A stretch of 64,000 nucleotides of DNA from Rhodoferax sp. (GCA_052390055.1 JBQTHH010000062.1:310-64309), one strand, 5' to 3'. Shown: positions 13 to 57,145, counted from the stretch's first letter. A program made the numbers and translations. The notes: generated by a model from the letters alone, not told the origin.

Positions 13-2871
13 TCATGCGCGTGCTTTCTGCGGGTCCTGCGCGGCGGGCGGGATGGGGGCGAAGTAGCCAATGACCAGCATCAGCACGCCCACGCCAATG
101 AAGGTGACGATGCGTTCGGCCCCGCCACGGTTGGAGAGGTCGATCAAGAGCAGCTTGAGCACCGTGAGGGCCAGCAGGGCCGCACCCACGCTCCACAGGC
201 CGCGCTGTTGGCGGCGGTGGGCGCTGAGCATCAGGCCCAGTGCCAGCAGGGTCCACAGCAGGGAGTAGCCGGCCTGCACCAGGAAGGAGTCGTACAGCGC
301 GGGCGCGGTCCAGGCGACGCCGCCGAAATGGTGGGCCATGCGCAGCCAGACGGTGTTGAGCGCAATGAACACCACCGCGGCCCAGGCGGTGGGCCAGGCC
401 TTGTGCAATGCCCAACTGGGGAAGAGCAGGGCGCTGGCGCGTAGGCGCTGCATCCAGTGCGCGCAGGCCAGCAGGCCCAGTGCGACGCTCAGATCGGTGG
501 GGTTGATCAGGGGGATGTAGGGCAGCGGTGCGGCGTTGCCGCTGGAGCGCCAGGCCACGAGCAAGGCGCCGACCAGCACCAGCAGGGCCAGCGGTGCGGC
601 GGCGCGCCAGAGGTAGGCGCTGGCGTGGCCGGCCAGGGGCCAGCGCTGGCGCCAGCGGCCCTGGGGCTGGTAGAGGGCGGGCGCACCCAGCGCCAGCAGC
701 ACGGCCCAGGCGGCACTGAGCAGCACCACCGTCGCCCAGGCGCTGTGCCACAGCTGGGCCTGGTCGACGGCCCAGTACAGCAACTTGCCCGCCAGCAGCA
801 TCAGCAGCCAGGCACCGGCGCTGTGGGTCCAGGACCACCAGGCTTGCGGCGCGCTGGTGTCGATGTGGCGCAGGGTGTGCAGGTGCCACACCAGGGCCAG
901 GGGCCAGACCCACCAGCCACCGGATTCGAAGCCATGGCCCAGCTCGGGCAGCGTCACCAGGGCCACGCCCAGCATCCAGGGCAGGGACAGGGCCGCCGGG
1001 TAGCGCGCTGCAGGCAGGGGCTTGGCCCTGCCGGGCAGCGCCAGGAAGTGCGCAGCCCAGGCGCTGCCCACCCAGGCCAGCAAGACGAGGTGGAGGCTGC
1101 CCGGGACACCCGCAAGGACCGCGCTGGCGCCGATGGCCTCCAGGCGGTCGATCTGCGTCCACAGCGCGCATTGCCACCAGACAAAGCCCAGCAGAAAAAA
1201 GCCCTGGGGAAGCAGGGATTCCAGTGCCAGGAAGGCCTCGTTCCATGCGGTCTTGGGGTCTTGGGGGGCACCGCGCAGGTGCGCCATCCAGGCGATGGCC
1301 AGGGCCGATGCGGCCAGCAGCAGGGCGCTGACAAAGCGCTCGTCGGCCAGCAGCCACCCGGCGTTGGGGGCGTCGAAGCCGGTTTGCAGGTACACCAGCG
1401 CGGCCAGGGCTTGCAGGGCGCAGCCGGTGAAGCGCGCCAGCCAGCGCTGCTGGCGCACGCCGATCCAGTACACGGCCGCGCCCTCGGCGGCCCAGGCGGC
1501 GCTGAGCCAGCGTCCGTCCAGCGCCAGGGGTACGGCCAGGGTGGCAAAGCCCAGCGTCAGGGCGACACAGCATTCGAGCAGCCAGCGGCCGGTGGGGCTG
1601 GGGTAGCGCTTGAGCGTCCAGGTGGCCACCAGCAGGTACCAGGCGGCCAGGCCCAGGGCGGCTGCGGCGCTGGCGTAGGGAATGTCCCACACCATGTGCG
1701 CCAGCAAACCCATGCTGACCACCGGGTTGCCAAACACCAGGGTGGCGTCGACGGCGCGTTGCTGCGGCAGACCGTGGCGCAGGGCATACCACCAGGCCGC
1801 CAGCAGGTACTGGGCAAAGAAGGCGCCCAGGAAGGGCAGGGTGCTGTCCAGGTGTTCGGGCCGGTACTGCAGCACGCCCCAGGCGGTGGCGATGCCGAAG
1901 GTGGCGAAGAAGCCCAGCAGGTTCAGGGGGCGCCAGGCGCGCAGCGCAGCAATGGCGACGATGCCGCAGTTGAGCAGCAGGTAGTAGCTGAACAAGCCCA
2001 CGTGGTCGCCCTGGCCGGTGGAGGCGAGCACGGGCGCGGCAAAGGCGCCCGCAAAGCCGATGAAGGCCATGGTTTGCGCGTTTTGCAGCAGCGCAATGGC
2101 GGTGGACAGGGCGCACACCAGCGCCAGCAGGCCAAATGCGGCACCGGCTGGCAGCAGGTGGTACAGGCGCAGCGCGGCAAAAATGGTGAGGTAGAGCACG
2201 CCCACCCCGGCACCTTGCAGGCTCAGGGAAAACGTGCCCTGCCCAGGGGTATTGCGCTTGCGCCAGCCCAGCGCGAACAGCACCAGGGCGGCCAGGCCGA
2301 TGCCGGCCAGGCGCAGCTCGGGCGGCAGCAGCGCGTGGTCAATGGAGTATTTGGCCAGGAACGCCAGGCCTGCAAACAGCATCAGCAGGCCCAGGCGCAG
2401 CACGGTGTTGCCACCCATCAGCCACTGCAGGGCCTGGCTACCCCACTGCGTCACGGGGTCGGGAGCGGGTGCTTTGCGGGGGGGTGATGCCGGGCGTGCC
2501 GCGGTGGGCGTGGGGGCCGTGCTGCGGGCCGGGGCGGCGGTGCTGGCAGCCGCGACAGCGGGGGCAGGCTGCTCGGCTGGCACCGTGGCGCCAGGCGGGG
2601 CGAAGGGCGCCGAGGGGTCCGGGGCGGCGGGGGGCGCTGTCGGCAGCGCTGGCCGTGCGGGTGGGGCGCTGGGGCGGGCGGCATGCGTGGCGTCGTCCGG
2701 GGTGGGCGGCGTCCAGCCGCGTTGCTGCAACTCCTGGCGTACCAGCGCCTGGATCTGGGTCTTCAGCAAGTGGCCGAAGACGAACCCCAGAATGGCGCCC
2801 CAGAACATGCCGAACACGCCTTCGGCGGCGGCGCCAATGAGAAACCCCGCTATGACCGTCAGCCAAACCAT
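13..2871 (-). CDS. DUF2339-type large integral membrane protein
   Basis: 952-aa ORF: N-terminal TM hairpin, Pro/Ala-rich linker, then WLMGGNTVLRLGLLMLFAGLAFLAKY and many TM helices, ending ERIVTFIGVGVLMLVIGYFAP, typical of the family. Confidence 0.8.
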   Translation of the reverse strand: MVWLTVIAGFLIGAAAEGVFGMFWGAILGFVFGHLLKTQIQALVRQELQQRGWTPPTPDDATHAARPSAPPARPALPTAPPAAPDPSAPFAPPGATVPAEQPAPAVAAASTAAPARSTAPTPTAARPASPPRKAPAPDPVTQWGSQALQWLMGGNTVLRLGLLMLFAGLAFLAKYSIDHALLPPELRLAGIGLAALVLFALGWRKRNTPGQGTFSLSLQGAGVGVLYLTIFAALRLYHLLPAGAAFGLLALVCALSTAIALLQNAQTMAFIGFAGAFAAPVLASTGQGDHVGLFSYYLLLNCGIVAIAALRAWRPLNLLGFFATFGIATAWGVLQYRPEHLDSTLPFLGAFFAQYLLAAWWYALRHGLPQQRAVDATLVFGNPVVSMGLLAHMVWDIPYASAAAALGLAAWYLLVATWTLKRYPSPTGRWLLECCVALTLGFATLAVPLALDGRWLSAAWAAEGAAVYWIGVRQQRWLARFTGCALQALAALVYLQTGFDAPNAGWLLADERFVSALLLAASALAIAWMAHLRGAPQDPKTAWNEAFLALESLLPQGFFLLGFVWWQCALWTQIDRLEAIGASAVLAGVPGSLHLVLLAWVGSAWAAHFLALPGRAKPLPAARYPAALSLPWMLGVALVTLPELGHGFESGGWWVWPLALVWHLHTLRHIDTSAPQAWWSWTHSAGAWLLMLLAGKLLYWAVDQAQLWHSAWATVVLLSAAWAVLLALGAPALYQPQGRWRQRWPLAGHASAYLWRAAAPLALLVLVGALLVAWRSSGNAAPLPYIPLINPTDLSVALGLLACAHWMQRLRASALLFPSWALHKAWPTAWAAVVFIALNTVWLRMAHHFGGVAWTAPALYDSFLVQAGYSLLWTLLALGLMLSAHRRQQRGLWSVGAALLALTVLKLLLIDLSNRGGAERIVTFIGVGVLMLVIGYFAPIPPAAQDPQKARA

Positions 2872-2951
2872 GTGCTGCCTCTCCTTGTCTGTCTTGTATC
2901 GGTATGGGTTGCGTCCACCGGGGTGGCGCCGCGCCAGTGTAGCAATCTGGC

Positions 2952-3000
2952 TGCTATAAAATGTATAGCTGCTTAATCAATATTCATGCGGGCCAATGGC
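2952..3000 (+). repeat. Dispersed 49-nt AT-rich palindromic element, copy A (intergenic)
   Basis: TGCTAT AAAATGT ATAGC TGCTTAATCAATATT CATGCGGGCCAATGGC; aligns without gaps to four other copies. Confidence 0.75.
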
Positions 3001-3034
3001 TGGAAAGCACCTTCTTTCGGGGCGCCGGGCACGC

Positions 3035-3577
3035 TCAACGGGCGCTTCGGGGTTTGGGGGGGGTGCTTGCCGCTCTGGGCGCTTCGTCTTTCGGCGCAGG
3101 CGCCGCAGGGGCGTCCAGCATCTCCAGCATTGCGACGACCTTGTCGCGGGTGAGGGGTTTTTCAAAGCTGCCGCGCACGTGCAGGCCTTGCAGGTGGGCG
3201 AGCTTTTCCGCCAGGTGCAGCACTGGGCCGTCGTAATGCACCAGGCGCCAGTTGGGGTCCTTGGGCGGTGTCAGGTTGTGGCCCGACACGATCACGATGT
3301 TGGACTGGCAGCGTTCCCGGGCCAGTTGCTGCAGAAGCTCCATGCCATCGAGCTGGGGCATGCACAGGTCCACCACGATCAGATCGGGGGGCACGGCGCT
3401 ACGGCGGTAGGTCTCCAGGCCTTCCTGGCCCGAGCGGGCTGTCTGCACCGAGGTGATGCCGAGGTGGGCCAAGGATTTCGCCAGCAATTCCAACTGGAAC
3501 GCATCGTCGTCCACCAGCAGTATCCGGGGGGGCTTGGTCAGCCCTGCATGACTCACGGGGTGTTCCATGGGTGTCAC
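3035..3577 (-). CDS. Single-domain response regulator (receiver domain)
   Basis: ILLVDDD, DLIVVDLCMPQLDG (phospho-Asp), VSG, EKP motifs; no output domain. Confidence 0.9.
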   Translation of the reverse strand: MTPMEHPVSHAGLTKPPRILLVDDDAFQLELLAKSLAHLGITSVQTARSGQEGLETYRRSAVPPDLIVVDLCMPQLDGMELLQQLARERCQSNIVIVSGHNLTPPKDPNWRLVHYDGPVLHLAEKLAHLQGLHVRGSFEKPLTRDKVVAMLEMLDAPAAPAPKDEAPRAASTPPKPRSAR

Positions 3578-6237: not shown

Positions 6238-7044
6238 TCAGACGCGCTCGAACACCAGGTCCCACACCCCGTGGCCCAGGCGCAGGCCGCGCTTTTCGAA
6301 TTTGGTCAGCGGGCGGTAGTGGGGCTTGGGGGCGTAGCCGTTGAGGTCCGGGTGGCTGGCCAGAGCACGGTTCTTGAGCAGGGCTTCGGCACCAAGCACT
6401 TCCAGCATCTGCTGGGCGTAGGGCTCCCAGTCGGTGGCGCAGTGGATGTACCCGCCCACCTTGAGCCGCGCGGCCAGCTTGGCCACCAGCGGCGGCTGGA
6501 TCAGGCGGCGCTTGTGGTGGCGGGTCTTGTGCCAGGGGTCGGGGAAGAAGATGTGCACGCCGTCCAGGCTCTGTTCGGGCAGCATGTGGTCGATCACCTC
6601 CACCGCGTCGTGGGCACAGATGCGGATGTTGCTCAGGCCCTGTTCGCCAATGCGCTTGAGCAGCGCGCCCACGCCGGGCTCGTGCACCTCGCAGCACAGG
6701 AAGTCGGTCCCGGGCAGCACGCCGGCGATGTGCGCAGTGGCTTCGCCCATGCCGAAGCCGATCTCCAGCACGCGCGCTGGAGGCGCCGTTGTTTGTAAGC
6801 CTTTTTCGGCCCTGGCCCGCGTGGAATATGCGAATGCTGCTTCGAAATCAATAGCATCCTGTTGGTAGGGCAGGAGGAACTGCGGCCCCCAGAGTTCGAA
6901 CGCGCGGGACTGCCCGGTGGTGGTGCGTCCGGCGCGCTTGACAAAGCTTTTGACGGTGCGCAGGAAGGGCGTCTGCTGCACCTGGAGCGGGTCTTGTGCT
7001 GGGGCCGCCAGAGGGGCGGGGGAGCTGTGTTGGGGGTCTGTCAT
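6238..7044 (-). CDS. trmB: tRNA (guanine-N7)-methyltransferase
   Basis: [45 protein letters not shown] motifs. Confidence 0.96.
6808..6856 (-). repeat. Dispersed 49-nt element, copy B, inside trmB coding sequence
   Basis: Minus strand TGCTAT TGATTTC GAAGC AGCATTCGCATATTC CACGCGGGCCAGGGCC; encodes [16 protein letters not shown]. Confidence 0.75.
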
Positions 7045-9639: not shown

Positions 9640-12264
9640 ATGACCACACCCGTGATGCGTGTTGCCGACATCCGCAAGACCTTTCTCGACTTCTTTGCCG
9701 CCAAGGGCCACACCGTGGTCGCCTCCAGCCCCCTGGTGCCGGGCAACGACCCCACGCTCATGTTCACCAACTCGGGCATGGTGCAGTTCAAGGACGTGTT
9801 CCTGGGCACCGACAAGCGCTCCTACGTGCGCGCCGCTTCCGTGCAGGCCTGCCTGCGCGCCGGGGGCAAGCACAACGACCTGGAAAACGTGGGCTACACC
9901 GCGCGCCACCACACCTTTTTCGAAATGCTGGGCAACTGGAGCTTCGGCGACTACTTCAAGCGCGAGTCCCTGCTGTGGGCCTGGGAGCTGCTGACCCAGG
10001 TCTACCAACTGCCCGCAGAGCGATTGCTGGCCACCGTGTACCAGGAAGACGACGAAGCCTATGACATCTGGACCAAGGTCATCGGCCTGCCCCCTGAGCG
10101 CGTGATCCGCATTGGCGACAACAAGGGCGGGCGCTACAAGAGCGACAACTTCTGGATGATGGCCGACACCGGCCCCTGCGGCCCCTGCAGCGAAATCTTC
10201 TACGACCACGGCGACCACATCCCCGGCGGCCCCCCGGGCAGCCCCGACGAAGACGGCGACCGCTTCATCGAGATCTGGAACAACGTGTTCATGCAGTTCG
10301 ACATGAAGGAAGACGGCTCCGTCACCCCGCTGCCCGCGCCGTGCGTGGACACCGGCATGGGCCTGGAGCGCCTGGCCGCCATCCTGCAGCACGTGCACTC
10401 CAACTACGAAATCGACCTGTTCGACACCCTCATCCAAGCCGCTGCCCGCGAAACCGGCTGTGCCGACCTGGCCCACCCATCGCTGCGCGTGATCGCCGAC
10501 CACATCCGCGCCACCGCCTTCCTGGTGAGCGACGGCGTCATCCCCAGCAACGAAGGCCGCGGCTACGTGCAGCGCCGCATCGTGCGCCGCGCCATCCGCC
10601 ACGGCTACAAGCTGGGCCAGAAAAAACCCTTCTTCCACAAGCTCGTGGCCGACCTCGCCGCCGTGATGGGCGACGCCTACCCCAAGCTGCGCGAGCAGCA
10701 AGAGCGCATCACCGAAGTGCTGCGCATCGAAGAGGAGCGTTTCTTCGAGACCCTGGCCACCGGCATGGAGATCCTGGACGGCGCTCTGGCCGAGGGCGGC
10801 AAAGTGCTGTCCGGCGACATCGCCTTCAAGCTGCACGACACCTTTGGCTTTCCGCTGGACCTGACCAACGACGTCTGCCGCGAGCGCGGCCTGGCCGTGG
10901 ACGAAGCGGGTTTTCATGCCGCCATGGAAAAACAAAAGGCCCAGGCCCGCGCGGCAGGCAAGTTCAAGCAAGACCGCGCGCTCGAATACAGCGGCGCGGG
11001 CAACACCTTCGTCGGCTACGAACAGCTCACCGCTGCCACCAAAGTGGTGGCGCTCTACCTGGAGGGCACGCCCGTGGCCGAACTCAAGGCTGGCCAAAGC
11101 GGGGTGGTGGTGCTGGAAACCACGCCCTTCTACGCCGAGTCCGGCGGGCAGGTGGGCGATGGCGGCGCCATCTTCAGCGACGTGGGCCTGTTCGAAGTGG
11201 CCGATACGCAAAAAATCAAGGCCGACGTATTCGGCCACCATGGCGCCGTCAAGAGTGGCACCTTGGCCGTGGGCGATTCCGTTACCGCCCATGTGGACGC
11301 TGTGGCGCGCGCCGCCACCATGCGCAACCACTCCGTCACCCACCTCATGCACAAGGCCTTGCGCGAAGTGCTGGGCGCGCACGTGCAGCAAAAGGGCTCG
11401 CTGGTCACGCCAGAGCGCACGCGCTTCGACTTTGCCCACAACGCCCCAGTCAGCGCCGAGCAGATCCGCGAGATCGAGGCCCGCGTCAACGCCGAAATCC
11501 TGAGCAACGCCGCCACCCAGGCGCGCGTGATGGACATCGAATCCGCCCAGCAAACCGGCGCCATGATGCTCTTTGGCGAGAAGTACGGCGAAACCGTGCG
11601 CGTGCTCGACATCGGCTCCAGCCGCGAACTGTGCGGCGGCACCCACGTCCAGGCCACGGGCGACATCGGCCTGTTCAAGGTGGTGGGCGAAAGCGGCGTG
11701 GCCGCCGGTGTGCGCCGCATTGAGGCGATCAGCGGCGCCAACGCGCTGGCCTACCTGCAAAGCCTGGAAAGCCAGGTCGAAGGGGCGGCAGCCGCCCTCA
11801 AAGCCCCGGTGGCCGAGGTGGGCGAGCGCCTGGCCCTGGTGCTGGAGCAGGTGCGCGCACTCGAAAAAGAAGTGGCCGCCCTCAAGGGCAAGCTTGCCAA
11901 CGCCCAGGGCGACGAGTTGCTGGCGCAGGCCATCGACCTGCAGGGCGTGAAACTGCTGGCCGCACGCCTGGACGGCGCCGACGTCAAGACCCTGCGCGAG
12001 ACCATGGACAAGCTCAAGGACAAGCTGGGCACCGCCGTCATCGTGCTCGGCGTGGTACAGGGCGACAAGGTGCAGGTGGCCGCAGGCGTCACCGCTGACA
12101 CCACGGCCAAGGTCAAGGCCGGTGAGCTGGTGAACTTTGTCGCTGGGCAATTGGGCGGCAAGGGCGGCGGCAAACCCGATATGGCCATGGCCGGGGGCAC
12201 CGAGCCCGCCAAGCTGCCCCAAGCCCTGGCCAGCGTGCAGGCCTGGGTGCAGGCCAAGCTCTGA
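9640..12264 (+). CDS. alaS: Alanine--tRNA ligase
   Basis: [56 protein letters not shown]. Confidence 0.99.
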
Positions 12265-12277
12265 TTGCCATCGCTAT

Positions 12278-12326
12278 TGCTACCGTTTTTGTAGCAATCA
12301 ATTCCATTCGGACGCGGGATAAGCCA
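12278..12326 (+). repeat. Dispersed 49-nt element, copy E (intergenic, downstream of alaS)
   Basis: TGCTAC CGTTTTT GTAGC AATCAATTCCATTCG GACGCGGGATAAGCCA; same 6-7-5-15-16 layout, more diverged. Confidence 0.6.
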
Positions 12327-12332
12327 CCATCC

Positions 12333-12911
12333 ATGCCCACCCGCACCGCTACCCGACGCCAACTGTTGCAGCACCTGGGCGTGGGTGCCTGGGCTCTTGC
12401 AGAGGGCTGCGCCTGGGCACAGGGGGCCGCAGAGCCCAGTCCTGGCTTTGTGGTGCAGCGCCTGCGTGCCCAGCGTGTCGCCCCTCTGGCCTGGACCGAT
12501 CTGCACGGCCAGCGCTGGAGCCTGGGTGCCTTGCGCGGACGCGCCGTGCTGCTCAACCTGTGGGCCAGTTGGTGCGCGCCCTGCCGCGAGGAAATGCCCA
12601 CTTTGCAGGCGCTGCAGTCGCAGGTGGGCGCGCAGCGCCTGCAGGTGCTGCTGTTCAACCACCGCGAACCTGCGGCGCGGGTGGGCGCCTTCGTGGCCCA
12701 GCAGGGTTGGAGCCTACCGGTGGTGGCGGACGAACCCGGGGCCATGGCGCGGCACTGGGGTGTGCGCATCTTCCCCAGCAGCGTGTTGATCGATGCGCGC
12801 GGGCGCGAGGTCGCCTTGGTGGTGGGCGCGGTGGACTGGATGGCGCAGCAGGACGCCGCCTGGATGCGGGACTGGCTGGGGCCGTCTGCCCCGGCCCGCT
12901 CAGCCCCCTGA
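12333..12911 (+). CDS. TlpA/ResA-family thiol-disulfide oxidoreductase
   Basis: LLNLWASWCAPCREEMP; twin-Arg-like leader TRRQLL. Confidence 0.9.
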   Translation: MPTRTATRRQLLQHLGVGAWALAEGCAWAQGAAEPSPGFVVQRLRAQRVAPLAWTDLHGQRWSLGALRGRAVLLNLWASWCAPCREEMPTLQALQSQVGAQRLQVLLFNHREPAARVGAFVAQQGWSLPVVADEPGAMARHWGVRIFPSSVLIDARGREVALVVGAVDWMAQQDAAWMRDWLGPSAPARSAP

Positions 12912-17556: not shown

Positions 17557-18795
17557 TCACACTTTTCCTTCGTGGTGGCGGAAGGCGCGCCAAAGCGCCA
17601 GGTCATACGCGATCTTCAGCGCTCCGCACAGCACCAGCGGGGCCGCCAGCGCCCCGGCAGCCAGCAGCGCCCCACCAAGCGAGGGGCTGGCGGCTGCAGC
17701 CAGGCTGCGCGGCACAGCGGTAAAACTTGCTGCCGCCGCCCGCTCGGGCGCTGTCACCACCGCCATCACATAGGCCGCGCGGGTGGGCACATCCATCTGC
17801 GACAGGGCACTGCGGGCGAACAAAAAGGCCAGCGCCCATTCCACACCCGGCACCAGGGCGGCAGCGATCAGGCAGAGATTGGCTGGAATGTGCGTGAACA
17901 CCATGGTACTGAGCAGGCCCACACGCTGCGCAACCCAGGGCGCAAGCCATTGTGAGGCTGTCGTCAGCAACCCGGCCCAGAAGAAAAAGCTTGCCGCCGC
18001 CGAGAGCGACAAGCCATGGCGCTCGAACAGCCACAACGCCAGCAACGAGTGCAGCACCAGACCGCCAGCAAAGGCATCCACGCTGAAGAGTGCGGCAAGC
18101 TTGACGACCGTGCGGCGCGAAGGCCCCAGCGGCTGCGGCGCAGCGTCCGCAGTGCCCGCAGCCGCATCCAAGCGGCGGTAGAGCAACCAGACTGCAACTC
18201 CGATGGCGGCGTAAAGAATGAACATCGCGCGCAGCGCGTCGAGCATGGGGCGGGCGCTCCATGCCGCAACCCAGGCCGGAGTAGCTGCCGCCAGTGCGCC
18301 ACAAGCGGCGCACAACGAACCGATCACCGTGTAGCGGGCCAACAGCCGCGTGCGTACCCCACCCTGGGCCGCAGCCGCCAGCCGCGCCTGTTCGAGCGGC
18401 AAAAAGACGCTCACGTCCCCCGAACTCGGGTTGAGCGTGCCGAAAAACGCGACCACCGCCAGGGGCCAGAACGTCGCCAGGCCGGCAAAGCCTATGCCGG
18501 TGCCCACCATCAGCGCGGCCGCTGTCGGCAGCAGACGGCGTTGTGGCCAGCGATGACCAAGGGCGCCGATGGCCAGGGTGGCCAAGGCCGAGCCCACCAG
18601 AGTTGCTGTGCCAAGCAAGCCGACTTCCATGGCGTCAAAGCCCAGTGCCAACAAATAGGCTGGCAGCAGCACCGCCATGTAGCCATCGGCAAAGGCGCGC
18701 AGACCGCGGCCCACCAGAATCACCCAGACAGAGCGCTCGGCCCCACTGGGCAGTAGCCAGTGGGCGCGCCGGATAGACTGGGTTTGGGGGGACAT
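17557..18795 (-). CDS. MFS transporter (chromate-cluster associated)
   Basis: About 12 TM helices, GTLNPSSGDVSVFLPLEQ, ALSQMDVPTR; start abuts the stop of the upstream gene. Confidence 0.85.
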   Translation of the reverse strand: MSPQTQSIRRAHWLLPSGAERSVWVILVGRGLRAFADGYMAVLLPAYLLALGFDAMEVGLLGTATLVGSALATLAIGALGHRWPQRRLLPTAAALMVGTGIGFAGLATFWPLAVVAFFGTLNPSSGDVSVFLPLEQARLAAAAQGGVRTRLLARYTVIGSLCAACGALAAATPAWVAAWSARPMLDALRAMFILYAAIGVAVWLLYRRLDAAAGTADAAPQPLGPSRRTVVKLAALFSVDAFAGGLVLHSLLALWLFERHGLSLSAAASFFFWAGLLTTASQWLAPWVAQRVGLLSTMVFTHIPANLCLIAAALVPGVEWALAFLFARSALSQMDVPTRAAYVMAVVTAPERAAAASFTAVPRSLAAAASPSLGGALLAAGALAAPLVLCGALKIAYDLALWRAFRHHEGKV

Positions 18796-19269
18796 CTAGC
18801 CTTGCGCCTGGCCGCCCGGGCTGCGCAGCAAAGCCCCGGCTGTGCGCAATCGGATCTGGGCGCAGTGGGCGTATAGGGCGTCGTAGATCACCATGCCGTG
18901 CCGGAGCATCTCGTGGTCATCCTCGAAATTGAGGGATAGCCCCTGCGAGATCGCCAGTAGGCCAGCGGCTTCCTTGGAAAGCTCGGGCCGAGCGGTGTCG
19001 GCGCCGCGCACGATGTTCGCCAGCTTGTGCAAGGGTGGATCGGTCAACTGGTATTTGGCGATGAAGGCATCGAAGCTGCATTCGTCGCCATGGTGGCCCA
19101 GCTCCACGCTAGGCACGTCATAGGCCGTGGCCCCGGTTTCAGCAGCGATGCGCAGGACATCACCCGCAGGTACGTAAAGAAACTCCGGGCTCTCGTCAAT
19201 GAAGCGGGCGATCAGCCAAGGGCAGGCGATGCGGTCGATCTTGGGGCGCTCGCGGGTAATCCATTGCAT
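18796..19269 (-). CDS. Chromate resistance protein, ChrB C-terminal-domain only (ChrF-like)
   Basis: MQWITRERPKIDRIACPWLIARFID, CSFDAF, YDALY; similar to the C-terminal half of the ChrB in the same cluster. Confidence 0.85.
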   Translation of the reverse strand: MQWITRERPKIDRIACPWLIARFIDESPEFLYVPAGDVLRIAAETGATAYDVPSVELGHHGDECSFDAFIAKYQLTDPPLHKLANIVRGADTARPELSKEAAGLLAISQGLSLNFEDDHEMLRHGMVIYDALYAHCAQIRLRTAGALLRSPGGQAQG

Positions 19270-31995: not shown

Positions 31996-33601
31996 TGCTC
32001 CAGGCACGGCCCCCCTGCTGCAGGTGCAGGGCCTGCGGGTCGCCTTTGGCGGGCACGAGGTGGTGGCGGGCGTGGATTTCGCCGTGCAACCGGGCGAGCG
32101 CGTGGCCTTGGTGGGCGAGTCCGGCAGCGGCAAGTCCATCACCGCGCTGAGCCTGCTGGGCCTGCATGGCGAGGCACGTGTGGGCGGCAGCGTGCGCTGG
32201 GCGCCCGACGGCGCGGCACCGCGCGAGCTGCTGGGCCAAAGCCCGCGCCAGTGGCAGGCCCTGCGCGGGCAGGACATTGCCATGGTGTTCCAGGAGCCCA
32301 TGACGGCCCTCAATCCGGTTTTCACCATTGGCCGCCAGATTGCCGAGATATTGGAGCTAAAACAGGCATTGGCCCGCGTGGATGCTTACCAGCGTGCTAT
32401 TGAATTGCTAGCAGAAACAGGCATCCCAGAGCCCGAACGGCGCATCCATGCCTACCCGCACCAGCTCTCCGGCGGGCAGCGCCAGCGCGCCATGATCGCC
32501 ATGGCGCTGGCCTGCCGCCCGCGCCTGCTGCTGGCCGACGAGCCCACCACGGCGTTGGACGCGGGCCTGCGCCTGCAGATTCTGGAGCTGCTGCAGCGCC
32601 TGCAGCAGCAGCATGGCATGGCGGTGCTGCTCATCAGCCACGACCTGCCGCTGGTGCGCCGCTTTGCCCAGCGGGTGCTGGTAATGGACCATGGCGTGCT
32701 GGTGGAGTCCGGTCCCACCGATCAAGTGCTGCGCGCGCCCCGCCACCCGGTCACCCAGGCGTTGGTGCATTCGGCCCCGCAGCGCCAGGTGGTCCCTGCC
32801 GCGCCCCAGGCCCCGCTGGCCCTGGGCCTGCAGGGGCTGAAGGTGTCCTACCCCGTGCCGCGCCCGGGCTGGCGGGGCTGGTTTCGCAAAGGCGCCTTCA
32901 TGGCTGTGCAGGGCGCGCACCTGGCCTTGCGCCAGGGGCAGACGCTGGGCCTGGTGGGCGAATCCGGCAGCGGCAAGTCCACCGTGGCGCTGGCGGCGCT
33001 GCGCCTGCTCCCCTGCGAGGGGACGGTGCGGGTGGGTGCGCAGGACTGGCCCGCCAAGGGGCCCGACCTGGCCTTGCGCCGACAGGTGGGGGTGGTGTTC
33101 CAGGATCCGTTTTCTTCCCTGTCGCCGCGCATGACCGTGGGCCAGATCGTGGGCGAGGGCCTGGAGGTGCACGAACCGCAGCTGGGTGCCAACGAGCGCC
33201 GCCAGCGCGTGGCGCAGCAGTTGGAGCGTGTGGGCATGGGCCCGAGCCAGGTGGCCGGGGTGCTGGAGCGCTATCCGCACGAGTTCTCCGGCGGGCAGCG
33301 CCAGCGCATCGCCCTGGCGCGCGCCCTGGTGCTGCAGCCCCGCGTGCTGGTGCTGGACGAGCCCACCAGCGCGCTGGACGCCACCACGGCGCAGCAGGTG
33401 ATCGCCTTGCTGCAGCAACTGCAGCGCGAGCACGCCCTGAGCTACCTGCTCATCACCCACGACGTGGCCGTGGTGGGCGCCATGGCCCACGAGGTGGCGG
33501 TGATGCATGCGGGCGAGGTGGTGGAGCAGGGGCCCTGGGAGGCGGTTTTTGCGCAGCCCAGCCACCCCTACACGCGCGAACTGCTGACGGCGGCGCATTG
33601 A
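31985..33601 (+). CDS. yejF: ABC transporter ATP-binding protein with two NBDs (YejF-like)
   Basis: Two GESGSGKS, two LSGG/FSGG signatures, DEPT Walker B twice. Confidence 0.92.
   Translation: MAPDAPGTAPLLQVQGLRVAFGGHEVVAGVDFAVQPGERVALVGESGSGKSITALSLLGLHGEARVGGSVRWAPDGAAPRELLGQSPRQWQALRGQDIAMVFQEPMTALNPVFTIGRQIAEILELKQALARVDAYQRAIELLAETGIPEPERRIHAYPHQLSGGQRQRAMIAMALACRPRLLLADEPTTALDAGLRLQILELLQRLQQQHGMAVLLISHDLPLVRRFAQRVLVMDHGVLVESGPTDQVLRAPRHPVTQALVHSAPQRQVVPAAPQAPLALGLQGLKVSYPVPRPGWRGWFRKGAFMAVQGAHLALRQGQTLGLVGESGSGKSTVALAALRLLPCEGTVRVGAQDWPAKGPDLALRRQVGVVFQDPFSSLSPRMTVGQIVGEGLEVHEPQLGANERRQRVAQQLERVGMGPSQVAGVLERYPHEFSGGQRQRIALARALVLQPRVLVLDEPTSALDATTAQQVIALLQQLQREHALSYLLITHDVAVVGAMAHEVAVMHAGEVVEQGPWEAVFAQPSHPYTRELLTAAH
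32365..32413 (-). repeat. Dispersed 49-nt element, copy C, antisense inside the ABC ATPase gene
   Basis: Minus strand TGCTAG CAATTCA ATAGC ACGCTGGTAAGCATC CACGCGGGCCAATGCC. Confidence 0.75.
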
Positions 33602-42856: not shown

Positions 42857-43758
42857 TGGCAGAGGGTGGGCTTGCCCCCAGGGGGCGCTGGCAACTTCGC
42901 CACCCCCAGGCCGTGGCCCTGATGGTGCTGGTGACCCTGATGTGGTCCAGCGCCGGGGTGGTGTCGCGCCACCTGGAGTACGCGCGCAGCTTTGAAGTGA
43001 CCTTCTGGCGCGCGCTGTTCACCTTTGTCAGCCTGAGCCTGCTGCTGCCGCTGGTGCGCGGGCCGCAGGTGTTCGCGCGCATGCGCCATGCGCCGCGCGC
43101 GCTGTGGGTGTCGGCGCTGTGCTGGTGTGTGATGTTCACCGCCTTCATGGTGGCCCTGGTGCTCACCAGCGTGGGCAATGTGCTGGTGACCATGGCCCTG
43201 GGGCCGCTGCTCACGGCGGTGGTGGCCTGGCTGGCCATCGGCCACCGGGTGCAGCCGCGCACCTGGGGCGCGATCCTGGCCGCAGGGGGCGGCATTGCCT
43301 ACATGTACGCCTCGCAGCTCGACCAGGGCAAGCTCACCGGCACCCTGGTGGCCCTGTGCGTGCCCCTGGCCGGTGCCGTGAACTGGACCGTGACCCAGCA
43401 CGCCCACGCCCAGGGGCAGGATGTGGAGCTGGAGCCCGCGGTCTGGCTGGGGGCGGCGCTGTCGGCGCTGCTGACCCTGCCCTGGGCCTGGCCCTTTGCC
43501 GCCACCACCCACGACGTGCTGCTGCTCGGTGGGCTGGGCCTGTTCCAGTTGGCCGTGCCCTGCGTGCTCAGCGTGTGGTGCGCGCGCGTGCTCAAGGCGC
43601 CGGAACTGGCCCTGTTGGCGCTGCTGGAGGTGATCTTTGGCATAGCGCTGGCCTGGTGGGGCGCGGGGGAGACCCCGGCGCAGGCGGTATTGATCGGTGG
43701 GGGCGTGGTCATCGGCGCCCTGGTTTGGAACGAATGGATGGCATGGAGACAAGCATGA
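42856..43758 (+). CDS. DMT/EamA-family transporter
   Basis: About 10 TM helices in two repeats; LLEVIFG. Confidence 0.85.
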
Positions 43759-44861
43759 CGGAACACGTGGTAGCCCAGGTGTGTGGCAGGGTGGGGTGCC
43801 TCACCCTCAACCGGGCGCAAGCGCTCAACGCCTTGAGCCTGGACATGATCCGCAGCCTCACGCGCCACCTGCTGGCTTGGCAGACGGACCCCGCCATTGA
43901 GGCGGTGGCCATCCGGGGCAGCAACAAGCACGGGGTGTTCGGTGGCTTCTGCGCCGGGGGCGACATCCGCTTTTTCCACCAGGCGGCGCTGGCGGGCAAC
44001 CCGGCCCTGGACGACTTCTTCACCGAGGAATACAGCCTCAACCACCTCATCCACCACTACGGCAAGCCCTACATCGCCTTCATGGACGGCGTGGTCATGG
44101 GTGGCGGCATGGGCATCAGCCAGGGCGCCAGCCACCGGCTGGTGACCGAGCGCAGCAAGCTGGCCATGCCTGAGACCAACATCGGCCTCTTCCCCGACGT
44201 GGGCGGCGGCTACTTCCTGAGCCGCTGCCCCGGCCATGCGGGGGAATGGCTGGCCCTGAGCGGCGAAGTGATCAGCGCCGACCAGGCCTGCGCATGGGGT
44301 CTGGCCGACCACGTCCTGCCCAGCGAGCGGCTGGCGGCCGCCTGGGACGCCTTGCTGGCCCTGCCCCGCATTGACGCGGCCGCGCTGGAGTCCTGGATTG
44401 CTATGTTTTCAATAGCAAAAGGACAAGATTCCACGCGGGCCAATGCCCATTTTGATGCCATGAATGCGGTGTTTGGGCTGGACAGCGTGGGCGCCATGGT
44501 GCGCGCGCTCGAAGCCATGCCCGGCGAATGGGCGGCGCACACCCTGGCGGTGCTGCGCAAGCGCTCACCGCTGATGTTGCATGTGGTGCTGGAGCAGGTG
44601 CGCCGCGCGCGCGGCATGGGACTGGCAGACGACCTGCGCATGGAACGCGACCTGGTGCGCCACTGCTTCTGGACCGCCCACCTGGAGCGCAGCGGTGCGC
44701 ACAGCGAAACGGTGGAAGGGGTGCGTGCCCTGGCCGTGGACAAGGACCACAGCCCGCGCTGGAACCCGGCGCGCATCGAAGACGTGACCCCGGACATGGT
44801 GGCGCCTTTCTTCACCAGCCCCTGGCCCGCCTTTGCGCACCCCTTGCGCCATTTGAACTGA
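43755..44861 (+). CDS. Enoyl-CoA hydratase/isomerase family (3-hydroxyisobutyryl-CoA hydrolase-like)
   Basis: LNRAQALNAL, FCAGGDI, MGGGMG, AMPETNIGLFPDVG, EGVRALAVDKD. Confidence 0.92.
   Translation: MTEHVVAQVCGRVGCLTLNRAQALNALSLDMIRSLTRHLLAWQTDPAIEAVAIRGSNKHGVFGGFCAGGDIRFFHQAALAGNPALDDFFTEEYSLNHLIHHYGKPYIAFMDGVVMGGGMGISQGASHRLVTERSKLAMPETNIGLFPDVGGGYFLSRCPGHAGEWLALSGEVISADQACAWGLADHVLPSERLAAAWDALLALPRIDAAALESWIAMFSIAKGQDSTRANAHFDAMNAVFGLDSVGAMVRALEAMPGEWAAHTLAVLRKRSPLMLHVVLEQVRRARGMGLADDLRMERDLVRHCFWTAHLERSGAHSETVEGVRALAVDKDHSPRWNPARIEDVTPDMVAPFFTSPWPAFAHPLRHLN
44399..44447 (+). repeat. Dispersed 49-nt element, copy D, inside the hydratase-family gene
   Basis: TGCTAT GTTTTCA ATAGC AAAAGGACAAGATTC CACGCGGGCCAATGCC; encodes AMFSIAKGQDSTRANA. 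Confidence 0.78.
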
Positions 44862-44977
44862 AGCGACGCCCTGGCAGGCCAGCTACAGGCCTGTGATGGA
44901 CTGGGGCCGCGTTATCTGACCGGGCAGGCGCATGCATTGTGCGCCTGACCTCGCGCAGGCGCTTGGTGTGCGGCGCG

Positions 44978-45793
44978 TCAGGGCTGCAATTGCTGGTAGG
45001 CCGCATCGGCCAGGCGCAGCAGGGCCGTGCGCTCCAGGTCGGCGCTGAGGGCGTAGCCCCAACCCTGGTCCACCCAGTAGAACTGCGACAGGCCCTGCTC
45101 CTGCTGGAAGCGAAAGCCGGTGTCTTGGGCCTGGGGGGCCTGCGCAGGCAGGGCGCCCAGGTACAGGGTCAGGCGTTGGCCGCTCTCGTGCTGGTACATG
45201 AACTGCGCCCGCATCGCCTGCTCTCCGGGCAGCAGGCGCCCGCCCACCAAAGCGTAGCCTTGCGCCTCCAGGTGCGGCACCCGCAGGGGCCGCCCCAGGC
45301 GCTTGGACAACCACTGCACCAGGTGCTGCTCTTCGGCGGCTTGTACATCCACCGGGTGGCGTACCTCTGGGGTGTAGGCGGCATGGGCGTAGCGGGCCTG
45401 GCGCACAAAGCCGCTGGCCTCGTTGCTGCGGGCCAGTGTGGGTGCATCCAGGGTGCCCCAATGGCCGTGCCCCCACCAGCCCAGCACGAAGGACGCCAAG
45501 GCAGCCGTGGCCACGGTCGCCCAGCGCCCCGCATTGGCGGCCCCTTGTGATGGCCGCAGTCCCTGCACCCGTGCGGCCATGCTGGCCGGGATGGGCTCGT
45601 CCAGCACCCCGTGGTGCAGTTGGCGTATCGCCTGGCGCTGCTGCTGCCAGGCCTGCACCGTGGCCAGGGCCTGGGCGTCCAGCGCGGCGCGGGGGGCTGA
45701 GCCGGGCGGGATCAGCGGGTCGCTCTGGCCATCCACCAGGGGGTGCAAGGTGTCGGCGTTGGCGGGGGAGGGGGGCGGTGTGGACATGCTCAT
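44978..45793 (-). CDS. Transmembrane anti-sigma factor
   Basis: LHPLVDGQ, central TM, YTPEVRHPVDV, WLSKRLG, LVGGRLLP, QFMY. Confidence 0.88.
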   Translation of the reverse strand: MSMSTPPPSPANADTLHPLVDGQSDPLIPPGSAPRAALDAQALATVQAWQQQRQAIRQLHHGVLDEPIPASMAARVQGLRPSQGAANAGRWATVATAALASFVLGWWGHGHWGTLDAPTLARSNEASGFVRQARYAHAAYTPEVRHPVDVQAAEEQHLVQWLSKRLGRPLRVPHLEAQGYALVGGRLLPGEQAMRAQFMYQHESGQRLTLYLGALPAQAPQAQDTGFRFQQEQGLSQFYWVDQGWGYALSADLERTALLRLADAAYQQLQP

Positions 45794-45794
45794 C

Positions 45795-46355
45795 TCACTT
45801 CAGGCGCTGCAAGTGGGCGCTGCGCCCGGGCGGCTGCGGTGCTGCGCCCGCTGCGGCCACGGGCGCCGCCGTGGCCTGCGGAGCCTGCATCAGCGCGTGC
45901 AGTCGCTGGCGCGCGCGGGACAGGCGCGACATCACGGTGCCGATGGGGGCGCCGGTGACGCGCGCCACCTCGGCATAGGGCATGTCCTCCAGGCACACCA
46001 GCAGCAGCACCTCGCGCTGGGTGTCGGGCAGGCGCATCAGGCAGCGCTGCAGGTCCAGGCCGAGTTCCGGGGTGGGGGTGCTGGCGTGGGCGCGCTCGTC
46101 CATGTCCTCCAGCACCTCGCCCTGCGCCAAAGGGTTGCGGCAGGCGGCCCGGTGCTGGTCCACGTACAGGTTGTGCATGATGGAAAAGAGCCAGGCACGC
46201 AGGTTCGAGCCCGCCAGCCACAGCCGCCAGCGGCTGCAGGCACGCTCCAGCGTGTCCTGCACCAGGTCGTCCGCCGCCCAGGCGTCGCCCGTCAGGGCGC
46301 GGGCGTAGCGGCGCAGGCTGGGGATGTGCTCGGGCAGGTCGTGCGTGCTGGCCAT
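45795..46355 (-). CDS. ECF sigma-70 factor
   Basis: IPSLRRYARALTGDAWAADDLVQDTL, GTVMSRLSRAR. Confidence 0.93.
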   Translation of the reverse strand: MASTHDLPEHIPSLRRYARALTGDAWAADDLVQDTLERACSRWRLWLAGSNLRAWLFSIMHNLYVDQHRAACRNPLAQGEVLEDMDERAHASTPTPELGLDLQRCLMRLPDTQREVLLLVCLEDMPYAEVARVTGAPIGTVMSRLSRARQRLHALMQAPQATAAPVAAAGAAPQPPGRSAHLQRLK

Positions 46356-46393
46356 GGGGCGGGTCTGGGTCTGCCGTTTGGGGGCCTGGGCTG

Positions 46394-46768
46394 TCAGGGC
46401 TTGGCGGTGCGCCAGACGTTGTTGACGCCTTCGCCGGTCTTGTCGCCGGGCTTGCTGTCCTTCACCCAGTAGTACAGGGGCTTGCCTTTGAAGGCCCACT
46501 GTTTGGCGCCATCGTCGCGCACCACCACGCTGTAGTCGCCACTGCCTTGTGCCCCGTCTGCGGCCTTCAGTGGCGGCCAGTTGGCGGCGCAGGGGCCATT
46601 GCATACCGACTTGCCGCCATGGGCCGGGTCTTTATCGAAGGTGTAGAGCGTCATGCCGTTGGGGCCGGTGAGCACGCCCTCGCTCAGGCGGGCCGGGGCC
46701 TTGTCTGCCAGGGTGCCGCATGCGCCCAGGATCAGGGCCGTCAAGGGGGCGAGAGCATGTTTTTTCAT
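46394..46768 (-). CDS. Lipoprotein with Y-X4-D repeats (COG4315-like)
   Basis: Lipobox LGAC; MTLYTFDKD, CNGPCAANWPP, PLYYWVKD. Confidence 0.88.
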   Translation of the reverse strand: MKKHALAPLTALILGACGTLADKAPARLSEGVLTGPNGMTLYTFDKDPAHGGKSVCNGPCAANWPPLKAADGAQGSGDYSVVVRDDGAKQWAFKGKPLYYWVKDSKPGDKTGEGVNNVWRTAKP

Positions 46769-46816
46769 CGGTTCATCCTTCCAGAAAATGGTCAGCACGG
46801 CTTGTGCTACCCGGAC

Positions 46817-46843
46817 AAACGATGGGGCAGGGCACTTTATTCC
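46817..46843 (-). promoter_or_regulatory. Putative ECF-dependent promoter GGAATA-N16-CGTT upstream of lipoprotein-sigma-antisigma
   Basis: Minus strand GGAATAAAGTGCCCTGCCCCATCGTTT, 49 bp upstream of the lipoprotein ATG. Confidence 0.55.
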
Positions 46844-46873
46844 CTGCCTGAAGAAAAATTTCCTGACCCCCGC

Positions 46874-47347
46874 TCAGCGGTGGTGCACCTTGAGGGCGCG
46901 CTCCACCTCGCGCTTGCCCTCGCGGTCCTTGATGGTGTCGCGCTTGTCGTGCTCGGCCTTGCCCTTGGCCAGCGCCAGATCCACCTTCACCCGGCCTTCC
47001 TTCCAGTGCAGGTTGATCGGCACCAGGGTGTAGCCCTTTTGCTCCACCTTGCCCATCAGGCGCTTGATTTCTTCCTTGTGCATCAGCAGCTTGCGCGTGC
47101 GCAGCTTGTCCGGGCTGACGTGGGTGGACGCCGTGTGCAGCGGGTTGATCTGCAGCCCGATGATGAAGAGTTCGCCGTTGCGCACCACGATGTAGCCGTC
47201 GGTGAGCTGCACCTTGCCTTCGCGCAGGGCTTTGACCTCCCAGCCTTCGAGCACGATGCCAGCCTCGAAGCGCTCCTCGAAGAAGTAGTTGAACGAGGCT
47301 TTCTTGTTGTCGGCGATCAGCGCCGGGGTATTGGGTTTCTTGGCCAT
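46874..47347 (-). CDS. smpB: SsrA-binding protein
   Basis: [40 protein letters not shown]. Confidence 0.97.
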
Positions 47348-47373
47348 AAAATTTGCGTGAAGCCAAGCATTCT

Positions 47374-47817
47374 ATGAAAACCGTCCACAAGTCCGTCCTC
47401 ATCTGGTACAGCCCCCAGGAAATGTACGACCTGGTCACCGATGTGGGCCGCTACCCGCAGTTCCTGCCCTGGTGCGACCATGCTGTCATCTTGCAGCACA
47501 CCGACACCGGTATGGAGGCCGAAGTGGGCATCCTGTTCAGCGGCGTGCGCCAGGTGTTCATTACCCGCAACACCCATGTGGCGGGGCGGCAGGTGCAGAT
47601 GCAACTCATCCAGGGCCCGTTCTCGCAACTGCAGGGGGCCTGGTACTTCCACACCCTGGGTGACGGCTCACAACGCGCCTGCAAGGTGGAGCTGCGCCTG
47701 GACTATGGCTTTGACAACCCAGCCCTGGCCAAGGTGGTGGGTCCGGTGTTCGACAAGATCGCCTCCAGCCTGGTGGACGCCTTCGTCAAGCGCGCCGCGC
47801 AGGTGTATGGCGAATAG
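47374..47817 (+). CDS. ratA: RatA/PasT (START-domain) ribosome association toxin
   Basis: YSPQEMYDLVTDVGRYPQFLPWC, GPFSQLQGAW; divergent from smpB. Confidence 0.9.
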   Translation: MKTVHKSVLIWYSPQEMYDLVTDVGRYPQFLPWCDHAVILQHTDTGMEAEVGILFSGVRQVFITRNTHVAGRQVQMQLIQGPFSQLQGAWYFHTLGDGSQRACKVELRLDYGFDNPALAKVVGPVFDKIASSLVDAFVKRAAQVYGE

Positions 47818-48154
47818 CCCCATGCTGCGCGTGACGGTGGTGTTTGCCGTGGCGCCGCGCCAGGTGCGCGAATGCGTGCTGGATGTGCCCGAGGGCAGCA
47901 CCGTGCGCCAGGCGCTGGAGCGCAGCGCCGTGCTGCAGGGCTGCGATGCCACACTGCTGGACCAGTGTGAGACCGGCGTCTGGGGGCACAAATGCGGACT
48001 CCAGCGGGTGTTGCGCGCGGATGACCGGGTGGAGGTCTACCGCCCCTTGCGGGTTGACCCCAAGGAGGCGCGGCGCCAGCGCTTCGTGCGCCAGGGCAGC
48101 AAGCGCGCGGGCCTGTTTGCCCAGCGCCGCACAGGTGCCAAACCGGGGTATTGA
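47807..48154 (+). CDS. ratB: RnfH/RatB ubiquitin-like protein
   Basis: GVWG, DRVEVYRPLRVDPKEARRQR. Confidence 0.88.
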   Translation: MANSPMLRVTVVFAVAPRQVRECVLDVPEGSTVRQALERSAVLQGCDATLLDQCETGVWGHKCGLQRVLRADDRVEVYRPLRVDPKEARRQRFVRQGSKRAGLFAQRRTGAKPGY

Positions 48155-48213
48155 TCCCGGCCCCGCTGCGGGGGCCCCACCAGCCAGCATCTGGCGCTGG
48201 GGCACAGGAGCCG

Positions 48214-48723
48214 TCAGCGGCAGTCCTGCTGGACGATGCCCTGCAGGCGCTTCACCTCCGCAGCGCGCTCAGCATCGTCAACGAATTCTTTCTCGCCCTT
48301 GTCGTTCATGCGGGTGATGCGCACCCCGGACTGGTAGGTCGCCAGGGACTGGCGTGCGCGCTTGCAGTTGTCAGCGCGCGCTGCGGCAATGCGCTCTTCA
48401 TCGGCCTTTTTCTTTGCCGCGGCCTCTTTCTCGGCCTGCTTTTTCTTTTCTTCCAGCTTGCGGTCCAGCTCGGAGGGCTTGGCCGGTGCCGTCGGCGCTG
48501 ACGCGCCAGCCGTGGGTGCGGGTGGCGCTGCATCCCCCGCCGGGGCCGATGCCGGGGCGGCCCCTTTGGGGCGCTTGAGGATGTTTTTCTCCGGAATGTC
48601 CGACGGGGGCGCGAGGTCGCTATAAACCTTGCGTCCGTCCTTGTCCACCCACTGCCATTGGGCCGCAGCGCTGACGCTGACGACCGACAGCAGCAGGGAC
48701 AGCCAGAAAGGAATTGCTCGCAT
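48214..48723 (-). CDS. DUF4124-domain secreted protein
   Basis: Signal peptide then [19 protein letters not shown]; C-terminal NCKRAR. Confidence 0.82.
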
Positions 48724-48843
48724 GCTGCCAGTGTAGCGGCAGCCACGGGGGAGCAATGCCACCGGGCAGGCTTTTGTGCACCCATCTGTATACGATCTGC
48801 CCGTACCTGGGACGGTACAATCCGGTATTTGGAGCCCAGAACT

Positions 48844-50313: not shown

Positions 50314-50337
50314 GTCTGTAACTTGAATCTGGTCAGA

Positions 50338-50366
50338 TTGCAATAATCTGGCCAAAACACTAAAAT
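50338..50366 (+). promoter_or_regulatory. Sigma-70 promoter of the toxin-antitoxin operon, overlapped by AATCTG repeats
   Basis: TTGCAA (50338-50343)-N17-TAAAAT (50361-50366). Confidence 0.65.
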
Positions 50367-50401
50367 CTGGCCCGAATTGATTTTCAGGCCAGATTTTTTT
50401 T

Positions 50402-51087: not shown

Positions 51088-51104
51088 CAGCGCAGGCAAC
51101 CACC

Positions 51105-52947: not shown

Positions 52948-52960
52948 TAACTTATTGATA
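52948..52960 (-). promoter_or_regulatory. IHF binding site in the attL arm
   Basis: Minus strand TATCAATAAGTTA, a perfect WATCAANNNNTTR match. Confidence 0.65.
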
Positions 52961-57133: not shown

Positions 57134-57145
57134 TTCTACACCCCC

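Follow-up and report, generated by a model that had tools for sequence, protein, structure and literature searches.

The USS of Pasteurellaceae and the DUS "dialects" of Neisseriaceae have cores of 9-12 bp, occur about once per kb and carry no dyad. In enterobacteria, palindromic units are described as keeping a species-specific consensus at conserved extragenic places (Gilson 1987, 1990, as summarised within PMC2817692 and PMC3333891). Within the same two papers, REPs are presented as proposed chromosomal landmarks bound by proteins (gyrase, IHF, Pol I; PMC2817692, PMC3333891). Occasional REP copies lie inside ORFs, and stop codons can be donated by the repeat (PMC3733652). The BRE of Bordetella is a repeat of about 90 bp and 69% GC, which is found in number-variable tandem arrays and reaches at most 29 copies (PMC3110155).

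Here we describe a dispersed element of a Rhodoferax genome (G000; assembly of 4.26 Mb, 66.6% GC, 101 contigs). The window, meaning the whole stretch of DNA that was analysed, is 64,000 nucleotides long (C62:310-64309; window position = contig coordinate - 309). The element was followed from the window into the whole genome and into relatives from the genus, among them G003, G010, G012 and G014, with one genome per species compared.

The element and its copies in the window

A reading of the window made from the sequence alone had described five related loci. We re-read the window and found all five sequences (copies A-E) at the coordinates and on the strands given there. Three copies, B, C and D, lie in frame within genuine genes for TrmB, a DppD/F-type ABC ATPase and a HIBCH-like hydrolase, and copies A and E are intergenic (Table 1). 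TrmB orthologues with 68-81% identity are present in 31/31 genus genomes, and the host of copy D matches the PDB entries 3ju1, 3bpt and 4hdt at E ~1e-60. Copy E begins about 10-14 nt past the stop of gene 9640-12264 and is the weakest of the five in the nhmmer profile search (24 bits).

Table 1. Copies of the element in the window and their host genes, in window positions
Feature	Position	Strand	Evidence	Remarks
Copy A	2947..3006	+	nhmmer 38.6 bits	intergenic; between the stop of gene 3035-3568 (-) and the start of gene 13-2871 (-)
trmB (tRNA m7G46 methyltransferase)	6238..7044	-	translation, orthologues	host of copy B
Copy B	6788..6859	-	nhmmer 48.1 bits	same strand as trmB and in frame with it; encodes 23 residues
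Copy E	12274..12340	+	nhmmer 24.0 bits, model positions 4-48; 0 composite mismatches	diverged, intergenic
Double-ATPase DppD/F-type ABC transporter protein	32024..33601	+	translation, orthologues; longest ORF from 31943	host of copy C
Copy C	32344..32414	-	nhmmer 38.8 bits	antisense to the ABC ATPase gene; reverse complement encodes KQALARVDAYQRAIELLAE
3-hydroxyisobutyryl-CoA hydrolase-like (HIBCH/ECH_2) gene	43755..44861	+	PDB matches, gene call	host of copy D
Copy D	44393..44462	+	nhmmer 51.1 bits	same strand as the HIBCH-like gene and in frame with it; encodes WIAMFSIAKGQDSTRANAHFDA

The composite pattern TGCTAY-N7-RTAGC-N16-ACGCGGG, with up to three mismatches, has exactly five matches in the 64-kb window, and these are copies A-E. 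The chance expectation from dinucleotide-preserving shuffles of the window is 0.17; no shuffle gave more than one match and 0/100 reached five, so the family is enriched over shuffled sequence. Neither the nhmmer profile nor the composite pattern found a copy in the last 20 kb of the window (44500-64000). In the whole genome, a scan returned 228 candidates, of which 220 contained the dyad and were kept. The nhmmer profile built from these 220 found 337 copies at E<1e-3, including all five of the window. This is one copy per 12.6 kb, in agreement with the density of about one per 13 kb estimated earlier from the window.

The aligned genome copies exceed the background in information content between about -38 and +30 around CGCGGGCC. 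The family of five was therefore described correctly, but its length of 49 nt was not, since the conserved span is about 70 bp. Its parts follow each other in the order TTGCTAY, seven A/T-rich bases, RTAGCA, a 14-nt spacer that mostly ends in CAATATTC or CATATTC, CACGCGGGCCARTGSC and an A/T tract. CACGCGGGCCARTGSC is followed by one base and a run of 4-5 A or T, and about 10 bp beyond this run there is another short A-run. The composite holds about 45 bits over about 70 bp. The copies had been noted as AT-rich spots in GC-rich DNA, and this was confirmed, as the element is 50% GC within 71% GC flanks and a 67% GC genome.

The dyad is the only part that pairs consistently among the predicted structures. 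Some copies show a second hairpin, with a CCCGC..GCGGG stem around ATATTCCAC, or a third at the 3' A/T tract, with a stem that varies. Both were rejected as parts of the element because they are not consistently predicted, and the 5' arm of the second is unconserved in G000. At the Y:R position of the dyad the covariation is moderate (odds ratio 3.1). This position is unpaired in 35% of the copies, and the two unpaired types are nearly equal (C.A 40, T.G 34). The dyad centre and the 3' tract can each be A-rich or T-rich. Since the A/T tracts occur in either polarity and the Y:R covariation is only moderate, reading of the dyad on double-stranded DNA explains it better than a strand-specific RNA does.

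Placement in the genome and inside genes

Gene calling with a codon-usage model, for which long ORFs served as the training set, gave 3,807 genes (87% coding), and the calls are approximate. By these calls, 118 of the 337 copies are wholly intragenic, 104 overlap a gene end and 105 are intergenic; the intragenic share is about 30-35%. We observed no orientation preference relative to flanking genes among the 337 copies. The intragenic copies are divided into 58 on the gene strand and 60 on the opposite one, those at least 150 nt from both gene ends (101 copies) into 49 and 52, and those in tandem spacers into 74 and 65. Replication-strand (GC-skew) bias is at most weak (88/205, p=0.05), and a Chi- or KOPS-like polarity was rejected for this reason.

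The extragenic copies avoid promoters. Divergent spacers hold 8% of them and make up 25% of the spacer length, and convergent spacers are enriched. In 102 genes the element supplies the stop codon (e.g. in the region of copy E, window 12264-12290), most commonly as a TGA directly 5' of TTGCTAY or as the TAG of the RTAGC arm. We considered a sigma-70 or sigma-54 promoter and an intrinsic terminator and rejected them, since the hexamer spacings do not fit (by eye, both strands), the copies are not biased in orientation toward downstream genes and divergent spacers are depleted. A DnaA-box titration site was considered for the likeness of TATCCACG to TTATCCACA. It was also rejected: TAT(T)CCACG is present in only about 100 copies, positions -2 and -3 are variable, and the ninth base is G in the G000, G003, G010 and G014 versions.

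The spacing of the copies is evener than chance (gap CV 0.83 vs 0.98 for random placement, p=0.002). Gaps below 2 kb account for 9.9% of all gaps against 18.7% expected, neighbours closer than 1 kb form five pairs against 19 expected, and the copies per contig are under-dispersed (left-tail p=0.0008). Among the neighbour pairs of the whole genome there are no inverted doublets or BIME-type clusters.

Translation of the element, first proposed for the three genes of the window, extends to about 100 genes genome-wide and shows a strong frame preference, but no bias in orientation. Within the coding copies GC3 is 43%, compared with 88% in the flanking 150 nt. On the gene strand, 44/58 copies read A-I-x-x-I-A...STRAxGQ, and on the opposite strand 50/60 read ...ALARVES..DAIxxIAN. 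The TAG of the arm closes one reading frame per strand; copies in the rarer frame carry GGAGC instead of RTAGC and so have no in-frame TAG. In copies with the TGCTCC/GGAGC arm, GGAGC is Shine-Dalgarno-like and stands a few bases before a start codon of the opposite strand, as in G000 C48:56302-56372 and its G003 orthologue L033:8026-8093. Further hosts are KdtA, the linkers of lipoamide dehydrogenase and of a MocR-type regulator, CobU, U32 peptidase, a NuoF-like subunit, Tex, a heptosyltransferase (WaaC) and SrkA/YihE.

It had been suggested that the element was recruited as protein sequence after insertion. The window copies do not agree with this. Copy C aligns without gaps to the orthologues of 20 genus members (length change 0), and its residues are homologous to ordinary ones (KQALARVDAYQRAIELLAETGI vs e.g. 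KMGLRASDAVQKAIGLIADTGI). Copy D adds one residue across the element compared with human HIBCH (3bpt). The dyad of copy B lies exactly over the conserved (L/I)xDxxAxF segment, and its 3' half is within about 9-12 extra residues relative to the usual linker PLDAxAAFGRSAPLVL. In SrkA the dyad lies over the DELIA helix of the E. coli protein and is followed by 12 extra residues. KdtA and CobU are also 12 residues longer than their homologues, and in all three proteins the dyad covers a pre-existing A/I/L-rich helix. WaaC has four additional residues; these figures of +4 and +12 are uncertain by a few residues because the PDB homologues used for the length comparisons are distant and the regions are loops. 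A coding copy of G003 aligns without gaps to ordinary GC-rich codons in G000. Because the change in length is 0 or +1 for copies C and D, the dyad covers conserved residues in copy B and SrkA, and the extra residues are few, most coding copies probably arose through substitutions and small indels within compatible sequence that was already there. Tex carries a clean insertion of 23 residues, which is one element length, and is the sole such case of the eight examined. Therefore, at least some coding copies may have arrived as whole units.

Versions among relatives and possible explanations

For the exact G000 form we counted 144 occurrences in G000 and 208 in G003, a relative of about 75-80% nucleotide identity and 62% GC; this form is essentially absent from 39 other relatives. 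Counted alone, the dyad exceeds its control more than 10-fold in about half of the genus members. In the rest it is at or below control; these are mostly small genomes, and also four of 3.6-4.9 Mb. Each element-bearing genome has its own 3' box. The G010 version is RTAGCTGCTCGCGCAnATTCCACGGGCGCCAGAGGC, and that of G014 is ...GCTGCTCCCGCACTATCCACGGCCTGAACGGCC.

The positions themselves are stable. G003 has 8/11 assessable sites in common with G000 and G010 about 9/18, and the sites that match the orthologous place in G000 include seven coding sites. At the TrmB site (copy B) every element-bearing genus member carries the element in its own version, and the element-free members have unrelated, ordinary GC-rich codons; this site is restricted to the subclade nearest G000. 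At the site of copy C six genomes carry the element in their own versions, and G010 shares the site. At the site of copy D the element stands at the same place in all element-bearing genus genomes sampled, again in own versions, and the element-free members have unrelated GC-rich DNA there. The element-free G012 (L103) retains the peptide WIANDVLATYAAS at this site in GC-rich codons (ATTGCCAACGATGTGCTGGCTACTTACGCAGCT), which looks like a decayed or proto copy, a peptide fossil.

In the taxonomic family, roughly 50 of 150 genera have the dyad at about 3 times the control or more, with up to 237 copies per strand. About two thirds of the genera, and half of the members of this genus, lack the element. 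Strings similar to TAGCTGC..GCGC..AGAGGC..ATTT are presumably common in Comamonadaceae genomes. Our literature search for a comparable repeat or uptake sequence in Comamonadaceae found nothing relevant. Many element-free genomes contain 0 occurrences of TGCTAY-N7-RTAGC against 5-20 for a reversed control that is unmatched for CTA and TAG words; words with CTA or TAG may be avoided in these genomes.

Orthologues that encode the same DNA at these sites had been named as a sign of ordinary conserved coding sequence. The same sites are indeed occupied in relatives, but by species-specific versions, and elsewhere by GC-rich codons. Since each species has its own version and the element-free relatives have GC-rich codons, neither ordinary coding conservation nor recent insertion accounts for the copies. 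From the stable sites, the own-version boxes and the patchy distribution among relatives, we conclude that the element is old, vertically inherited, repeatedly lost and concertedly evolving at fixed sites.

Strand neutrality, even spacing, promoter avoidance, stable sites, versions, in-place writing and decay point to a signal on double-stranded DNA, maintained by selection or drive. Our preferred explanation, which we hold tentatively and with less than even confidence, is an old, vertically inherited signal of this kind with a putative lineage-specific DNA-binding reader. It would be a REP/BIME-like landmark and not an active transposon. Reading by a protein, and what this reading achieves, are what we infer; protein binding seems the most plausible kind of function. 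A dimer would bind the dyad TTGCTAY-N7-RTAGCAA, the centre of which need only be A/T-rich in either polarity. A second contact would read the fast-evolving GC box (CACGCGGGCC in G000), and the flanking A/T tracts about 10 bp apart would favour bending. About one site per 12 kb would be maintained, evener than chance. The sites would have no fixed orientation, and most would be located shortly after the ends of genes, with promoters avoided. If there is no spacer to hold a site, tolerant protein segments such as linkers or surface helices would accommodate it through small indels and codons that end in A or T. When the preference of the factor drifts, all sites would follow, which would give species-specific versions at conserved positions, and when the factor is lost, the sites would decay to GC-rich codons. 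The likeliest role would be a landmark for nucleoid or supercoil management.

The landmark explanation is preferred over an uptake signal because the motif is long, dyadic and sparse. However, a composite of about 70 bp and 45 bits is unusually complex for a site array that evolves by point substitution, and this counts against a landmark, as does the 23-residue gain of Tex, which equals one element. Even spacing and promoter avoidance are equally expected for uptake signals. The frequent loss, which extends to four larger genomes, is more in keeping with an accessory or selfish system than with a core architectural system.

An uptake or molecular-drive signal, similar to USS or DUS, is possible but doubtful. 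In such a system a competence receptor would prefer the motif, and biased uptake with recombination would spread the better matches. Versions would arise as the receptor specificity drifts, and the motif would decay once the preference is lost. This agrees with the equal use of both orientations without gene-strand bias, with spacing evener than random, with coding copies made by codon choice without indels (C and D, GC3 43%), with conserved positions that carry species-specific versions and with the decay to GC-rich codons in element-free relatives. The copy-free last 20 kb of the window and a patchy loss that suits an accessory trait are also in its favour. An uptake signal is kept in consideration by the frequent loss among close relatives and by the architecture, in which a GC core precedes two A/T tracts with a spacing of about 10 bp.

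The genome encodes ComEC and a ComP_DUS-type minor pilin (Pfam, 86 bits). The pilin has 138 aa (MTKQSGFTLIELMI...) and is encoded outside the window at C66 ~18480-18900 (-), where its gene is absent from the codon-usage gene calls. Pilins of this type are present in 140/151 genomes of the taxonomic family and in 0/14 control genomes. However, ComEC and the ComP-like pilin are equally present in element-free genomes, and so they do not explain the distribution of the element. The density of 0.08 copies per kb is about ten times below that of USS and DUS, and the motif is about six times longer than the known uptake sequences, which lack a dyad. Several coding copies have 4-23 extra residues, and these are not expected from drive by point mutation alone. 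Our literature search found nothing that links uptake sequences to this bacterial family. If the doubtful uptake explanation were nevertheless correct, the element could be a third family of uptake signals that evolved independently, a 70-bp composite recognised by a type IV pilus receptor, with versions at genus and species level across a large betaproteobacterial family. Its drive would then have sufficed to rewrite about 100 protein segments in each genome despite a GC3 background of 88%.

The sequence-only reading took the element for a non-autonomous mobile or protein-bound one. We consider it unlikely that it is an ancient REP-, MITE- or RPE-like non-autonomous element, which is now immobile and kept by selection or homogenised by gene conversion. 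Such an element could have been spread by a hairpin-recognising HUH (Y1) enzyme, with the dyad hairpin and the ATTCCACG box as its cleavage site. The layout does resemble that of IS200/IS605 or REP ends, with a hairpin, a conserved box 14-16 nt away and (G/A)TAG in the arms. A second GC-rich stem with the loop ATATTCCAC is possible in G010 and some G000 copies, but it is not conserved in G000. The clean 23-residue gain in Tex is also in favour of mobility. Placement past gene ends and promoter avoidance are typical of REPs, and in-frame REP and RPE copies are known (PMC3733652). In contrast, copies C and D are not insertions, as their residues are homologous throughout, and in copy B and SrkA the dyad covers pre-existing conserved residues.

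Compared at one genome per species, the copies themselves bear no mark of transposition. Their flanking direct repeats are no longer than displaced controls, and terminal inverted repeats were not found, as the two ends (dyad and A/T tract) are unrelated. Among the 220 aligned copies the mean identity is 51% and the maximum 86%, with none above 90%, and near-identical young copies or subfamilies were not found. In the 46 variable columns the mean identity of 0.342 equals that of the column-shuffled null, so the copies behave like independent draws from the profile. Inverted doublets and clusters are absent, close pairs are fewer than random, and a lagging/leading strand bias is at most weak.

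A single-copy HUH/Y1_Tnp gene (about 220 aa) is present in the genome outside the window, at C6:85302-85958. The gene was found in 30/31 genus genomes, element-bearing and element-free alike, and no copy of the element lies within 3.5 kb of it in G000. A RAYT link was rejected, since the gene is neither flanked by the element nor co-distributed with it. The hairpin CCCCAATTT..AAATTGGGG beside this gene is unique in the genome and tied to no repeat family here. Thus neither the target-site duplications nor the linked RAYT that a mobile element might have left were found, and with near-identical copies and clustering also absent the idea of a mobile element was not sustained.

An element acting at the RNA level, as a stabilising hairpin, a terminator or attenuator, or a small RNA, is very improbable. 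The dyad would give the same 6-7 bp hairpin in transcripts of either strand, many copies directly follow stop codons, and some G010 copies resemble a long GC stem followed by a T-run. However, the dyad stem is weak and no U-run follows it. The mean MFE of -24.1 kcal/mol is barely below the -20.5 kcal/mol of segment-wise shuffles, with nearly all of the difference coming from the dyad. Rfam 15 gave 0 matches at gathering thresholds across the window, and when the E limit was raised to 10 the surroundings of copies A and D yielded nothing meaningful. The orientation relative to genes is unbiased, one third of the copies lie deep inside genes in both orientations, and the 3' tract is A-rich as often as a signal without strand specificity predicts (70 A-rich, 134 T-rich). 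Finally, chance resemblance or ordinary coding conservation has nothing in its favour except the three window copies in conserved genes, and can be dismissed given five matches against 0.17 in the window, 337 genome copies, a GC3 of 43% and element-free relatives that encode the same protein positions with unrelated GC-rich DNA.

Significance and comparison with known systems

If the landmark explanation holds, about 1 in 40 genes would have a 23-residue stretch dictated by a DNA signal and not by the needs of the protein. This signal would be kept in place across a genus in which orthologues are only 55-80% identical. In a large bacterial family, about one third of the genera have the element. 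It could serve as a natural system to study how far a genome-wide DNA signal overrides codon usage and shapes proteins, and how hundreds of sites change jointly with their reader; the versions and fossil copies make this question testable. The sharp presence and absence among close relatives should make the putative reader findable by phylogenetic profiling. The element is also a strong lineage marker, and its spurious A/T islands, donated stops and Shine-Dalgarno-like arms lead gene callers and alignments astray.

BRE is, like the element, a betaproteobacterial repeat, is reported in Comamonadaceae and is sometimes found in coding sequences (PMC3110155). Identity of the two was rejected, since BRE has a different sequence and behaves differently (PMC3110155). 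The element also differs from MITEs in having no terminal inverted repeats, TSDs or young copies.

USS and DUS are likewise over-represented, orientation-neutral and evenly spaced, enter coding sequence by codon choice, have lineage-specific versions at conserved positions and combine a GC core with phased A/T tracts. Unlike them, the element is about 70 bp long with a dyad and occurs about once per 12 kb (0.08 per kb), and many close relatives lack it although they have retained ComEC and a ComP-like pilin.

As with RPEs, many housekeeping proteins contain the translated element. One frame is preferred, the segments concerned are linkers or lie at the surface, and their positions are conserved between species; Tex represents an RPE-like unit insertion. 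RPEs, however, lengthen the host protein by their whole length. For the element, seven of the eight cases examined show a change of 0, +1, +4 or about +12 residues, and in copies C and D the encoded residues have homologous counterparts in orthologues without the element.

Compared with the REPs, palindromic units and BIMEs of Enterobacteriaceae and pseudomonads, the dyad of the element is A/T-rich with a 7-nt centre, whereas the REP stem is GC-rich, and it is joined to a non-palindromic GC box in about 70 bp total. The element forms no inverted pairs or BIME clusters and is over-dispersed. Unlike REPs and REPINs, it has no RAYT that is flanked by it and co-distributed with it, 118/337 of its copies are intragenic and mostly without unit-length insertion, and its (G/A)TAG lies inside the arm and is not a tag like the 5' GTAG/CGTC of REPs. 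The analogies that had been drawn to REP and RPE point to the right neighbourhood. The element shares with REPs the hundreds of short palindromic copies with a species-specific consensus, the location mostly just downstream of genes in convergent and tandem spacers with promoters avoided, the presence of some copies within ORFs and the donation of stop codons.
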